Shown here: in pieces, positions 26,096 to 35,882 of the stretch
How positions within the stretch are numbered: the first letter of the stretch is position 1
Layout of the letters: the number at the start of each line of letters is the position of its first letter
Virus record (IMG/VR): IMGVR_UViG_3300021088_000012
Span: 1 to 61,188 of that record
Length of the DNA: 61,188 nucleotides
Origin: a virus
Lineage: Duplodnaviria; Caudoviricetes
Direction: 5' to 3' (one strand)
The notes under the pieces: model-generated
The model's database searches: none
What the model was told of the DNA's origin: nothing
The model's input: only the letters and a program-made list of their open reading frames with translations
Position numbers and translations under genes: made by a program

Positions 26096-29000
26096 ATGAA
26101 AAAAATATTTCTCTTCGCCCTGATTATTTATAGTTTTTCAGCTTTCGCGCAATATCCATCGCCGGTATTTACGAAACCAAATAATTCTTATGGAACTATT
26201 TTAAATGGATTTTCTCCGGATAGTGTATTTTACTTTCCAACAGGATGCGGAGTGCCGACGGATACTACTTTCCTGCATGCTCAACAAAATGGAGGTAAAG
26301 CGCAGAAATTGAGAAAGTGGGCGATTTATGGTGATACTTGTGGGCATAATTCTTATCTATGGGAACCGACTTTACAAATATGGTTCCTGATAAAAACAAA
26401 AGGAGTTGATTCAATTTTTAGAACGCCTGGGATTGATTCTATTTGTTATATATTAAATGGAAGGCAGCATTGCTTTTTGGATAGCGCTGGAGGTGGTGGC
26501 GGCGGAATTGATTCAACACTTCTTACAGGGCTTTGGATAAAAAGAAATTCTGTCGGAACAATCATTACAATCTATGCCGATAGCGCGGCAATGGCCTCTT
26601 ATTTTCTTCGCCGGGCGGACAGTGGCACTAATTATGTAACAGCTGCCCAATTAGGAAAAAAATTGGATACCTCCGTTCACTTCAATATCTACGTGCGAAG
26701 ATTGGGTGCCCCTGGAGATACGCTCCTCACAGCTTCAGACAGTACCTTACACGTAGCAGCCCAGCGAGACAGCATTGATGCGCATCATGTCATAAATCCA
26801 GATCTATCCTGGACGTGGTATGTGCAGGCGCATGATAGCACTTCCGCCAATGCCTTGGAGACCGAGTATGGGGCTGATACTGCGCGACTGGCGGTAAATG
26901 CAGCTTTAGCCAATAAAGTAACAAATGGAGGCGCTTCCAAAAGCTTTACTACGGGACTACTTTCAAGCCGGCCAGCAGCATCGAACTGTCAGTGCTATTA
27001 TGGCTCAACAACAGATTCGGTTCTCTATTACGATAATGGCGCATGGATTCCTATGGGAAGAGCAGGATCGGGGAGTAGCCTACTATTGAACAATCTTCTT
27101 TCTATCAATGGAGGCATAGGCCAATTGGGAGGCACATCAGCGAAGCCTAATACAACGCTTGGCTTTCATAATACCGATACTCTTACATACGACAGTCTAA
27201 AGAACCTCATTATCAGGGGCATGCCCTTATTGACCTCCTCTGCCGGGGCCTATGTAGTAGTGAGAGACAGCATCACCGGAAAATTATACGATATACCGGC
27301 ACAGCAGACTGACACTACCGGAGTAGCAGCAGGCATAGCCGCCGGAAATCTCATGATCGCTGTTTGGAATGGGGTGACGAATAAAGTTGTTTTTCAGGCA
27401 CTTCCATTAGGGCCATTCATTGTGAATAATAACTGGGTGGTGGCCAGTAATGTTTTAGATAGCGTGTGTATAAATTGCAAAGTCGCCCAAGCCCCTCTTA
27501 CGGATAGCGGAACTTTTGCTTTGAACGGTTTTCTGGGAGGAACGAATACCGTTACCACTAACCATGACTCTACGCAGACTCGTTATATAGTTGTGAACTA
27601 CCAGGGATCTGCTAAAATAGCTAATCAGTTAGATGTCACCTTAAATCAAGGGGCCACAACTGATACTACCTCTATGAATGTTATCGATATTAATTTACAT
27701 GATAACAATCAATCAAAACATGCTTCCATAAATGGCATTAATTTCAATATCCGAAAACAAACTGTCGGCGGCACTTTGGAAAATTTCACCGGAATTAATA
27801 TATCGTTGGTTCCTTCAGCCGGGGATTCTTTGGGAGGACTAAATTCTATTTTTCATCCGAATATTTTCAACCCATCCGGGTATGTTGGCACGATCGCTGC
27901 ATTCGATGCGGGGTTCCCGGCAGGTAGTTACAGCAACATAAACAAGATCATCGGTCTAAACTTCGGTAGTGGAGGAACAGCAACAGCCCAAAATGGAATC
28001 ATAGGAGTAAATGTTGGTGTTAGTGCAGCAGCTAACAATTATGGGATTAATTCTTTTGGGACTGCTAACAATCTTATGAATGGCCCATTGATCTTGAATA
28101 ATGTATTAGGGTCGTCTGGAACGCCAAAATTATTAGTGCATGCAAGCGATAGCAGTGCGAAGGAGATAAAACTAGGTTCTGGATTTTCTGTGTCTAATGA
28201 TACCTTGAATGTAACAGGAGGGGGAGGCGGGTCTACACTTCCATTAAAAGCTATTGGTTTTGGGAATGCCTCAAATACCTTGACAGGGGATACTACTAAA
28301 ATAAAATTCGATTCATCTGGGCAAGGGCATACTTATTTATACGTTAATAATGGCCCTGTAGCAACCGGCGACATTTCTGGTTTTGGCAATAGCATTACGT
28401 TTGGATTAAATGCCAACCCTCAAAATGTTAATGACTGGATTGCGCAATTAGCGTACAACTTAGGAACAACTCCAAATAATCTAGGACTAAGCTCTTCTAC
28501 TCTTGAAAAACAAACACCCCTAAACCCATTTGGGGCAGCGAATGCGATAGATAGAGTAGCCGGAACTATTCCCACAAAAGATGCTACTCATCGATTATTG
28601 GTAATCATGTATGGTATTAATGATGTACGGTATAATGGAGCTAACTACACGACTACTAATTTTGCGCTGGATTATGATACTGTGCTTACTTCCATTTACG
28701 CCAAAGGATGGGATAGCACAACTGTTATAATGACGAGCACTACCTATGTGGATTCAGCAAGCGCTTTCGTCTCTTTTTCCGGGAATCCTATCGCCACTTA
28801 TGCAAGGCAAGCAAGTTTTGATTCGACGATTCAGGCAAGGGCGGCATTTCATCATGTTAAATATGTTGACGTAAAAACGCCAATGATATTGGCAGGTAAA
28901 AAGGATGTATTAAGTTCTGATGGACTTCATCCTTCGAATGCTGGCCATAGGATTATTGCATTGGCGATAGCAAAAGCATTGGATTCCGCTAGAATTGATA

Positions 29001-34820: not shown

Positions 34821-35882
34821 ATGAAAAAGATCTTATTAGCGGTTTCGTTTTTTATTTGCGTGGCTTGTTCCGGGCAAAATATTTATTCTGGAAAAATTGC
34901 CGGTCTCAATGCCATATTCTACACATCACCGGGTTTGGATACCACACAACCGGTGAATTTATTGCTCTTTACCCCGGGCGCCGGGGAGCAGGGGACGGAT
35001 ATAACGAAATTGCTGATCCACGGCCCTTTTCAATTCCTGAAGGCAACGGTTGATATTAAGGTTCCTCTCCTGGTGGTCGCGGTCCAGAATATCAATGCCA
35101 ATCCGCAGCCTCTTGAATATCAGTCATATATTGATGGAATCAGGAAACTATACAAGATCAATAAGATCGTGCTGACGGGGCTTTCACGGGGGGGCCAGAA
35201 TGCGGAATGGTTCGCCAATTATTCGGAAGCTCACCTGGCGGAGATAGCAGGGATGATAGTATTCAGCTCCCAGGGAACGGTATCGGATTACCCTGGTGTT
35301 CCTGGGACGCTCAATCCTTCTCTTTACCTGAAGTATAATATTCCGATCTGGCGAGGGGTAGGGGACCAGGATTTCACCTGGCCTATTAACCAGGGATTGA
35401 ATAATGCTCTTTCTTCCGCCGCTCCTAAGCTGGCCATATGGACGACCTGGCCCGGCGCCGGGCATGGCGATCCAGTCTGGGTACAGGGCTATGAACCCTT
35501 TCCTACGCCTACCAATCCGATTTACGTCACCATGAAAATGTCCATCTATCAATGGGCGTCAAGTATCATGGGAAGTCCGCCGGCCCCTCCTGTGGTAATC
35601 ACCTATAAGAGCGCTGCGGAAAGTCAAGTTTTCACGCGCAATTGTGTCTGCGGGACCCCGGTTCCTGTGATCTATACTGTGCCGGCCGGGAAATATACAA
35701 GCACTGTCAGCCAGGCGGCTGCTGATCAGTTCGCCATGTCTGACTTATCGGCTAATGGACAGGCATATGCGAACGCGAATGGCATATGTATCCCGATCCT
35801 GGTGTATATATTGAAACATTATTCCGATGGAACGATAATAAAAATTAATCCTGCAGGTGATTCTGTAGTAATTAAGCCATGA
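34821..35882 (+). CDS. Exported alpha/beta-hydrolase with C-terminal DUF5977-like domain
   Basis: Signal MKKILLAVSFFICVACSG-Q; PGAGE, GLSRGG nucleophile elbow, GDQD, GAGH; FTRNC...YTVPAGKYTSTVSQAAAD...NGQAYANANGIC. Confidence 0.8.
   Translation: MKKILLAVSFFICVACSGQNIYSGKIAGLNAIFYTSPGLDTTQPVNLLLFTPGAGEQGTDITKLLIHGPFQFLKATVDIKVPLLVVAVQNINANPQPLEYQSYIDGIRKLYKINKIVLTGLSRGGQNAEWFANYSEAHLAEIAGMIVFSSQGTVSDYPGVPGTLNPSLYLKYNIPIWRGVGDQDFTWPINQGLNNALSSAAPKLAIWTTWPGAGHGDPVWVQGYEPFPTPTNPIYVTMKMSIYQWASSIMGSPPAPPVVITYKSAAESQVFTRNCVCGTPVPVIYTVPAGKYTSTVSQAAADQFAMSDLSANGQAYANANGICIPILVYILKHYSDGTIIKINPAGDSVVIKP

Follow-up and report, generated by a model that had tools for sequence, protein, structure and literature searches.

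Five adjacent late genes of a siphovirus-like phage encode putatively exported proteins, two of them rich in a Bacteroidota O-glycosylation motif

The window analyzed here is the whole of IMG/VR record IMGVR_UViG_3300021088_000012 (61,188 bp, rated 100% complete), a complete siphovirus-like phage genome. Our subject is a block of five plus-strand open reading frames (ORFs) that spans 26096-35882, at the coordinates given in an initial annotation, and lies between the tail genes and the lysis genes. That annotation described the five genes as tightly coupled, which their junctions bear out: neighbors overlap by ATGA or are set apart by 3-nt gaps, and 11 nt separate the block from the gene before it. 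This preceding gene (24597..26084, plus strand) is the last tail gene without a signal peptide (hereafter leader) and encodes a 495-aa tail fiber with a collar-like C-terminal region. It matches tail-fiber families of PHROG (best E = 1.7e-8) and, weakly, Pfam Collar (E = 0.0025).

The first gene of the block (P0001; 26096..30916, plus strand) encodes a fiber-like protein of 1606 aa, with the leader MKKIFLFALIIYSFSAFA↓Q (arrows mark likely cleavage sites). Directly after the leader comes a conserved, Cys-containing N-terminal domain (residues 19-135; 26150..26500, plus strand) with the motifs PTGCGVPTD and DxCG, which is common to 10 differently built relatives. Its residues C51 and C82 (C33 and C64 in mature numbering) are invariant in 11 of 11 aligned sequences, that is, the window fiber and the 10 relatives. 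Pfam returned nothing for this domain at E <= 10, and an Atlas look-up gave weak leads only (0.81). The AlphaFold model, mostly of beta strands, is too poor for use (pLDDT 53.3).

Farther along P0001 lies a domain (residues 763-958; 28382..28969, plus strand) that can be assigned by its sequence to the SGNH/GDSL esterases, being above the curated Pfam cut-off (PF13472, E = 1.9e-17, 64.8 bits against 32.9) and carrying the catalytic blocks GNS, GIND and DGLH, as read by eye. Matches to GDSL proteins in the PDB are weak, and a match to PHROG 5240 is confined to this domain. The protein ends in a jelly-roll knob (approximately residues 1490-1606; 30563..30913, plus strand; AF2 pLDDT 91.3). A 357-aa query (residues 1250-1606) matches 1334 library proteins of 130 to more than 2000 aa at E <= 0.001, and, among the matches listed, the last ~115 residues of P0001 align with the extreme C-terminus of many. 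The fold resembles CBM22, CBM16, viral jelly-rolls and the C-terminal domains of Klebsiella phage tailspikes in the PDB (TMq <= 0.48), as well as proteins of uncultured Caudovirales (TMq 0.66-0.67). The knob family is absent from PHROG; 3 of 55 of its proteins match tail-fiber PHROGs, via other parts. The knob is ruled out as a secretion signal, since the same domain ends many leaderless proteins, and no domain of type IX secretion systems (T9SS) appeared among the fold matches listed.

The second gene (P0002; 30913..32874, plus strand) encodes a right-handed beta-helix protein of 653 aa (PF13229; leader ...FTSGA↓D). Its N-terminal cap matches GH136, GH120 and alginate-lyase structures in profile comparisons, and it is a probable glycanase or lyase. 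A scan of IMG/VR with the P0002 sequence alone was empty, and alignment-based scans gave relatives. The third (P0003; 32871..34592, plus strand; 573 aa; leader ...FAHA↓Q) encodes an RCC1-like propeller with a C-terminal PKD-like domain (PF25390, PF13540, PF22352). In the related record L014, a 1192-aa leader-bearing protein (13307-16885, the same as L016) is a fusion of a P0003-like propeller (residues 1-557) with a P0002-like beta-helix (562-1171), which hints that P0002 and P0003 work together. The fourth (P0004; 34596..34817, plus strand; leader ...GARA↓Q) encodes a small basic protein of 73 aa that has no family match in Pfam, PHROG or NCBIfam and no homolog that we could find in related loci. 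The fifth (P0005; 34821..35882, plus strand; 353 aa; leader ...VACSG↓Q) is esterase-like and carries a DUF5977 domain at residues 262-324 (E = 4.6e-23).

Pfam thus agrees with the SGNH, beta-helix, RCC1 and DUF5977 assignments made earlier from the sequence. The alpha/beta-hydrolase assignment of P0005 fares less evenly: a GLSRGG nucleophile-elbow motif can be read by eye, a Pfam match is absent, and we infer an alpha/beta-hydrolase for this part of the protein. Likewise, of the proposed set of lyase, deacetylase, esterase and binding propeller, the enzyme and binding domains are present, with lyase and deacetylase as plausible activities only.

All five proteins begin with an apparent signal peptide, as the initial annotation had claimed. 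All 84 ORFs of at least 45 aa were screened for leaders with a hydrophobicity/charge heuristic (a basic N-terminus, then a hydrophobic core), which flagged eight: five of five in the block and three of the 79 others. A run of at least five adjacent genes among eight flagged of 84 has P = 1.75e-4 in permutations of random gene order. The heuristic was negative for the 495-aa fiber. By the same approach, each block protein has the features of a Sec and signal peptidase I substrate (basic N-terminus, core of ~8-15 residues, small residues at -3 and -1), and the likely cleavage sites are, in block order, AFA↓Q, SGA↓D, AHA↓Q, ARA↓Q and CSG↓Q. Gln stands at +1 in four of them; P0002 has Asp. Gln at +1 of signal peptidase I substrates, the Q-rule, is described for Bacteroidota in the available text of PMC10367356.

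Leaders recur across relatives of these proteins. They are present in 4 of 4 close beta-helix homologs at 37-52% identity, though the leader sequences differ; all 10 fiber homologs have a leader with Gln after the hydrophobic core; 15 esterase relatives retain one; and Gln soon follows the core in 64 of 70 leader-bearing proteins that share the P0001 C-terminal region. The leader of P0005 holds a Cys (..VAC16), which raises the question of lipoprotein processing. We set this reading aside, as 14 of 15 leader-bearing relatives have no leader Cys and the leader Cys of P0090, an esterase relative, lies upstream of the aligned site. Because these relatives end their leaders in ..G↓Q or similar without Cys, cleavage of P0005 by signal peptidase I appears more likely than lipoprotein processing.

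At L002, a related locus with a cassette of four flagged genes, the fifth gene, for the propeller, retains a homologous in-frame leader-coding stretch (KNLLTILLFLPVLCFG↓QG; 11965-12088). There ATAA replaces the ATGA of the window, so that the start codon reads ATA, as would fit a weak start codon or export that was lost recently.

No C-terminal T9SS sorting domain (PF18962, PF13585, TIGR04183) was found in any of the five proteins with Pfam and NCBIfam, including searches of the C-terminal segments at E <= 10, and this absence rules them out as T9SS cargo. The initial annotation had also read paired Cys as consistent with periplasmic disulfides. Such pairs exist, and C51/C82 of P0001 is invariant, but Cys is not enriched: its frequency in the block (0.011) equals that in the rest of the proteome. 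The statistics on the leaders, in the block and in its relatives, strongly support the prediction that the five block proteins are exported.

The strongest signal of the block lies in the O-glycosylation motifs of P0001, which the initial annotation does not mention. The general O-glycosylation motif of Bacteroidota, D-S/T-A/L/V/I/M/T (hereafter sequon), is used solely on non-cytoplasmic proteins, according to the available text of PMC12871550. P0001 holds 32 sequons, compared with 6.0 +/- 2.4 expected from residue shuffles (z = 11). All lie within residues 1-1250, and they take up 32 of the protein's 73 Asp residues. Control motifs in the same protein show no such excess: 6 observed against 6.0 expected for the reversed motif, 0 against 1.1 for E-S/T-hydrophobic, 8 against 11.8 for N-S/T-hydrophobic, 7 against 8.5 for D-S/T-other and 15 against 24.2 for D-other-hydrophobic. 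P0002 holds seven sequons against 2.6 expected (p = 0.011), exactly the seven listed in the initial annotation (DTT131, DSL226, DTL248, DTI282, DTL287, DST334 and DSI370). The remark that the only two Asp residues of the 73-aa protein fall in DSA24 and DSS38 is likewise accurate, and in P0003-P0005 sequons do not significantly exceed chance. In the remaining proteome (55 other ORFs of at least 100 aa), 33 sequons occur against 33.8 expected.

The excess extends to relatives, and it follows the leader. Ten fiber homologs, all with a leader and Gln, hold 171 sequons against 52.5 expected, and the four close beta-helix homologs, all leader-bearing, hold 32 against 9.1. By comparison, the 59 distant and mostly bacterial beta-helix homologs (17 with PF18962) have 192 against 177.8, or 1.08 times chance, when the motif density of P0001 is about five times chance. 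The 149 proteins that share the P0001 C-terminal region divide into 70 with a leader (599 sequons against 306.4 expected), 68 without (180 against 185.9) and 11 with cut N-termini (46 against 38.2).

The esterase family offers a further comparison, for which 30 of 69 homologs were counted: 15 relatives with a leader ending in ..G↓Q have 28 sequons against 13.2 expected, and 15 leaderless relatives, which start MATVT.., have 2 against 11.7. Most of the 39 omitted homologs (P0085, P0100-P0137) match DUF5977 only, and a few (for example P0102, P0104, P0106, P0115 and P0116) cover more of the esterase. The leaderless esterases (P0078, P0079, P0086-P0089, P0091-P0099) are depleted of sequons, beyond a mere lack of enrichment.

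A sequon excess as a general trait of fibers or beta-helices is ruled out by the leaderless and bacterial controls. Because those sets lie near or below chance, the excess, as judged from motif counts, belongs to leader-bearing phage proteins and not to fibers, beta-helices or secreted enzymes as such. The link is not universal, since leader-bearing beta-helix proteins of the loci L003, L004, L006 and L007 are not enriched. Glycosylation of P0001 and P0002 by the host is a strongly supported prediction.

Promoter-like sites (42 observed, 44.0 in shuffles) and terminator-like sites (18 observed, 19.6 in shuffles) occur at the level of shuffled sequence, in line with the earlier statement that no promoter or terminator separates the block from the tail genes. 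A Bacteroidota-type promoter pattern, scanned with a consensus, has no match within the block; such consensus scans do not cover every promoter type. The best intrinsic-terminator-like hairpin (38130..38149, plus strand; an 8-bp stem with six GC pairs, then a T-run) lies 3' of the endolysin gene and probably marks the end of the late operon. These scans thus found no promoter or terminator of the block's own, independent of the late genes, that would identify a moron, and membership of the block in a late tail-to-lysis operon is supported.

The lysis cassette that follows (35879..38099, plus strand) comprises three genes for small membrane proteins with transmembrane segments (35879-36196, 36212-36574 and 36577-36975), a gene for a leader-bearing protein (37070-37558) and a gene for an M15-type endolysin (37593-38099; Peptidase_M15_4 and PHROG endolysin matches), all on the plus strand. 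The leader-bearing protein, one of the three flagged outside the block, has 162 aa, a leader ending AFS↓Q and more hydrophobic segments. It has zero family matches and may act in lysis; its 74% identity to its counterpart in L002 (15889-16380) makes it the best conserved in the region.

The arrangement is repeated in three IMG/VR records of 60-63 kb (L012, L013 and L014) that share the tape measure, hub and 495-aa fiber with the window. Identities to the window are 28-43% for the tape measure; 54, ~28 and 57% (L012, L013 and L014, respectively) for the hub; 47, about 26 and 56% for the 495-aa fiber; and 49, 42 and 34% for the P0001 N-terminal domain. Each record has a different leader-bearing cassette after the 495-aa fiber, followed by lysis genes: two leader-bearing genes in L012, four in L013, and two plus a leaderless esterase in L014. 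The first cassette gene always encodes a leader, the conserved domain of ~115 aa (PTGCGxP, DxCG and the Cys pair) and a variable remainder. In all three records, as in the window, the cassette belongs to the tail module and comes after the tape measure and hub. The proteins of L013 are identical to those of L015 (DASYEB010000025.1, 52063-72404 of 198,419 bp, from a Puia sp. assembly), which on this sequence context is probably an integrated prophage. Because L015 lies inside a large Puia sp. contig, the phage family may include temperate members.

Elsewhere in the window, genes were recognized for the portal (8063-9502), a prohead protease (10058-11182), a 1330-aa tape-measure-like protein (16463-20455), a 1375-aa virion structural or hub protein (20456-24583) and the large terminase (57557-58942). 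Domain scans of the window ORFs found no integrase, as previously stated, and no tRNA was found in the window. Portals with ~30% identity to this one occur in Polaribacter, Flavobacterium and Cellulophaga phages. Among cultured phages, megablast of window 8000-30000 and tblastn of P0001 and P0002 gave zero matches, and searches with P0003 and P0005 matched generic domains only. The phage is one of soil Bacteroidota. Because one assembly of Puia sp. and one of Chitinophagaceae contain relatives of the P0001 N-terminal domain, the host is probably a member of Chitinophagaceae.

Both ends of the record carry ~19-20 copies of a 9-bp unit (TGCAGCGGT / ATTGCAGCG; window 12-184 and 61006-61185) within ORFs that run off the record ends (QRL-type repeats). 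The probable cause is a circular or permuted genome in which the assembly broke within a single repeat-coding gene; L002 terminates in a similar SGRR-coding repeat (19800-20000). About 10 minus-strand genes at 1685-7824, including a class I methyltransferase-like gene (1685-2317), interrupt the otherwise plus-strand genome just before the portal, and a PAPS-reductase-like gene (56049-56780) adjoins the terminase genes. Three genes are of homing-endonuclease type: 6413-7165 (minus strand; GIY-YIG and NUMOD3), 9502-10224 (plus strand; NUMOD3), between the portal and prohead protease genes, and 39793-40296 (plus strand; HNH). The last of these was flagged as leader-bearing, and its Pfam match to an HNH endonuclease identifies it as a false positive. 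An HNH gene immediately precedes the first leader-bearing gene of L002. The remaining flagged ORF (52076-52474) encodes a lipoprotein-like protein of 132 aa that starts MKYLLIIFLFASCGPS; it lies among early or replication genes and is a candidate for an envelope protein, for example one for superinfection exclusion.

We propose that the five genes form the variable distal end of the late tail operon and would supply gear that recognizes and degrades host surface sugars. P0001 would be a long fiber that bears an SGNH esterase and ends in a jelly-roll tip, P0002 a beta-helix glycanase and P0003 an RCC1 propeller joined to a PKD-like domain, next to the small basic protein P0004 and a second esterase, P0005, with DUF5977. 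These proteins would cross the inner membrane by means of host-type Sec signal peptides and be cut by signal peptidase I, mostly before Gln. Disulfides could then form in the periplasm, where the host's general glycosylation system would O-glycosylate P0001 and P0002 at D-S/T-hydrophobic sites. That the cassette is exported and O-glycosylated by the host we consider highly probable.

Particles built in the cytoplasm would meet the exported proteins only once holin and endolysin open the envelope. By way of its conserved N-terminal domain, P0001 would then attach to the tail, the 495-aa fiber being a possible docking partner, and the released virion would carry host-glycosylated appendages. Docking at this late stage is physically possible: in lysates, appendages can still be added to fiberless T4 particles and to tailspike-less P22 heads, and lesions made by holin link the cytoplasm with the periplasm while the outer membrane is still unbroken. 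The whole chain, from export through glycosylation to docking on the particle at lysis, we judge to fall just short of an even chance. The broader proposal, that Bacteroidota tailed phages complete a portion of their virion beyond the cytoplasm, with Sec-exported, disulfide-bonded and glycan-coated fibers and tailspike-like enzymes joining within seconds, after holin action and before outer-membrane rupture, is a tentative one that we hold with some doubt.

Docking is favored by the conserved position after the tape measure, hub and 495-aa fiber, by a conserved N-terminal domain that is followed by a variable remainder, and by a knob that is common to leaderless proteins, some of which match tail-fiber PHROGs. 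It is also favored by Cellulophaga phage phi18:3 (NC_021794), in which the leader-bearing proteins gp085-087 are annotated as virion proteins detected by tandem mass spectrometry (MS/MS). The same export and glycosylation could, however, serve proteins that never join the particle. Lysis would then free stable, glycosylated, soluble enzymes and binders from the periplasm. These would act on debris and neighboring cells, where they would strip or deacetylate capsule, exopolysaccharide or O-antigen, thereby preventing the trapping of progeny and easing the next infection. Shiga toxin genes provide a parallel, as late-operon, leader-bearing genes whose products mature in the periplasm and are released by phage lysis. 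Several observations that weigh against docking suit such free enzymes. In P0002 no adaptor domain stands between the leader and the beta-helix, and the distant homologs of this protein are mostly bacterial, 17 of 59 having a leader and the T9SS sorting domain PF18962. In the esterase family, one genomic position holds leader-bearing forms in some relatives and leaderless forms in others, as expected of an enzyme active only after lysis; for such a protein, then, the compartment cannot be essential. The N-terminal domain has not diverged in step with the 495-aa fiber or the hub (n = 3), and the leaderless 495-aa fiber could be the particle's only receptor-binding protein. Against the whole chain, further, the phi18:3 virion assignment is a record annotation that is compatible with co-purified free protein, and gp085-087 are not enriched in sequons (1 against 3.7, 1 against 3.2 and 1 against 3.0). 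We know of no mechanism by which tailed phages take up periplasmic parts, and Polaribacter phage Danklef_1, a distant cultured relative, has a leader on none of its four proteins from tape measure to lysis, so the feature is not general among Bacteroidota siphophages. On the other side, the architecture of P0001 is that of an anchored fiber, with its tail-fiber-type knob, and the secreted bacterial homologs are not enriched, so heavy glycosylation is not simply a need of free extracellular enzymes. Release of free enzymes is thus possible, if somewhat doubtful. The initial annotation had proposed either a receptor-binding and polysaccharide-degrading apparatus matured outside the cytoplasm or an enzyme set released at lysis. 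Export, the late operon and the enzyme and binding domains stand, and these two outcomes are not separated.

Three other explanations are, in our view, unlikely even when taken together. The exported fiber could be displayed on the envelope of infected cells or on vesicles through its N-terminal domain, tying infected cells to fresh hosts or acting on the cell's own surface before lysis. Its leader followed by a conserved domain of ~115 aa, mostly beta strands in a low-confidence model, recalls the MAT fibers of Bdellovibrio. An outer-membrane sorting signal was not found, however: none of the five proteins has a T9SS C-terminal domain at E <= 10, and no acidic lipoprotein export signal is seen after the Cys of P0005 (by eye, against a consensus). 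With a phage benefit that is speculative, we regard surface display as improbable. The leaders could instead go unused, as relics of bacterial genes or mere hydrophobic N-termini, in proteins that fold in the cytoplasm and join ordinary tail assembly. The position is canonical for receptor-binding genes, secreted bacterial homologs are a possible source of the beta-helix gene, and the leader calls are heuristic and not predictor-grade, which also weighs against export itself. Against unused leaders, they persist in relatives at 37-52% identity while their sequences change, and most carry the phylum-specific Gln at +1. Where a leader is missing, as in the esterases, it is cleanly removed and the sequons are lost too, and the excess in P0001, with its flat controls, would be unexplained for a cytoplasmic protein. 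This reading is very unlikely. Least plausible to us is that the genes are lysogenic-conversion or auxiliary cargo, that is, secreted carbohydrate-active enzymes that serve the host or lysogen and merely adjoin the tail genes. Their domains are those of bacterial polysaccharide-active enzymes, and the location of the L013 proteins inside a 198-kb contig of a Puia sp. assembly suggests that the family probably includes temperate members. Yet the block has ATGA coupling to late genes on both sides, no excess of promoter- or terminator-like sites and no Bacteroidota promoter motif, and no integrase was found in the window. The position of the cassette is constant while its content changes in every relative, as in receptor-binding modules, and the sequon excess is specific to phage copies.

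As far as is known, tailed phages produce and put together every one of their parts in the cytoplasm. Extracytoplasmic maturation of host-recognition gear, which very probably occurs here, would set this gear apart from the parts of any studied tailed phage. If so, phages of a major bacterial phylum finish appendages or released enzymes with the secretion and glycosylation machinery of the host, and host glycosylation mutants should alter phage fitness. Annotation pipelines that read a signal peptide as 'not structural' would misfile such genes. If assembly into the virion also holds, tailed-phage assembly would involve a second compartment, and the particle would gain a host-dependent glycan coat with possible effects on stability, host range and recognition. 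The esterases with and without a leader, and the phage and bacterial copies of the beta-helix, are internal controls that give clean predictions.

The block shares much with the tail fibers and tailspikes that carry receptor-destroying enzymes: the position after the tape measure and hub, fiber repeats, a jelly-roll tip, esterase and beta-helix domains, and a conserved N-terminal part with a variable remainder. Those known to us lack a signal peptide and are produced and put together in the cytoplasm. The block differs in its five leaders and in the sequon excess of the fiber P0001 and the beta-helix P0002. The targets of phage diversity-generating retroelements are likewise remarked to lack signal peptides in the available text of PMC6199706. 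We found no paper that describes leader-bearing, sequon-rich or glycosylated phage tail-fiber or depolymerase genes, in a literature search that did not extend to supplements.

Parallels also exist among cellular proteins of Bacteroidota and other bacteria. Substrates of Bacteroidota O-glycosylation combine a signal peptide with the motif, as the block does, in the available text of a review (PMC12871550), in whose main text the word 'phage' occurs 0 times; the block is phage-encoded. Type IX cargo of Bacteroidota carries C-terminal sorting domains, such as the PF18962 of distant P0002 homologs, which none of the five phage proteins has. The MAT fibers of Bdellovibrio bacteriovorus (PMC10769870) have a signal peptide, a conserved beta-rich N-terminal domain and variable tips, like P0001. 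Unlike the block proteins, they are cellular proteins of a predator from another phylum and have no glycosylation motif, and the likeness is one of architecture alone. Leader-bearing genes of unassigned function in Porphyromonas gingivalis prophages, where predicted cleavage exposes an N-terminal Gln as in the block, are interpreted in the available text as possible modifiers of the host outer membrane and not described as tail-fiber or depolymerase genes, and sequons do not come up there (PMC10367356).

The closest parallel in layout is phi18:3. This phage belongs to another family (Pachyviridae), no sequence similarity to the five block proteins was found, and its record makes no mention of leaders. 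Its gp085-087 are nevertheless three consecutive large proteins encoded just upstream of the lysis genes, like the block, and they likewise start with a leader followed by Gln (..FGYS↓QV, ..GVSA↓QT and ..GLNA↓QT). In the record they are listed as virion structural or tail proteins, with the remark 'based on experimental MS/MS proteomics analysis'. Across 38 Cellulophaga phage records, gp085 keeps its N-terminal 390 aa and varies in its C-terminal part. Cultured Cellulophaga phages thus offer a system in which the question raised by the block is directly testable.

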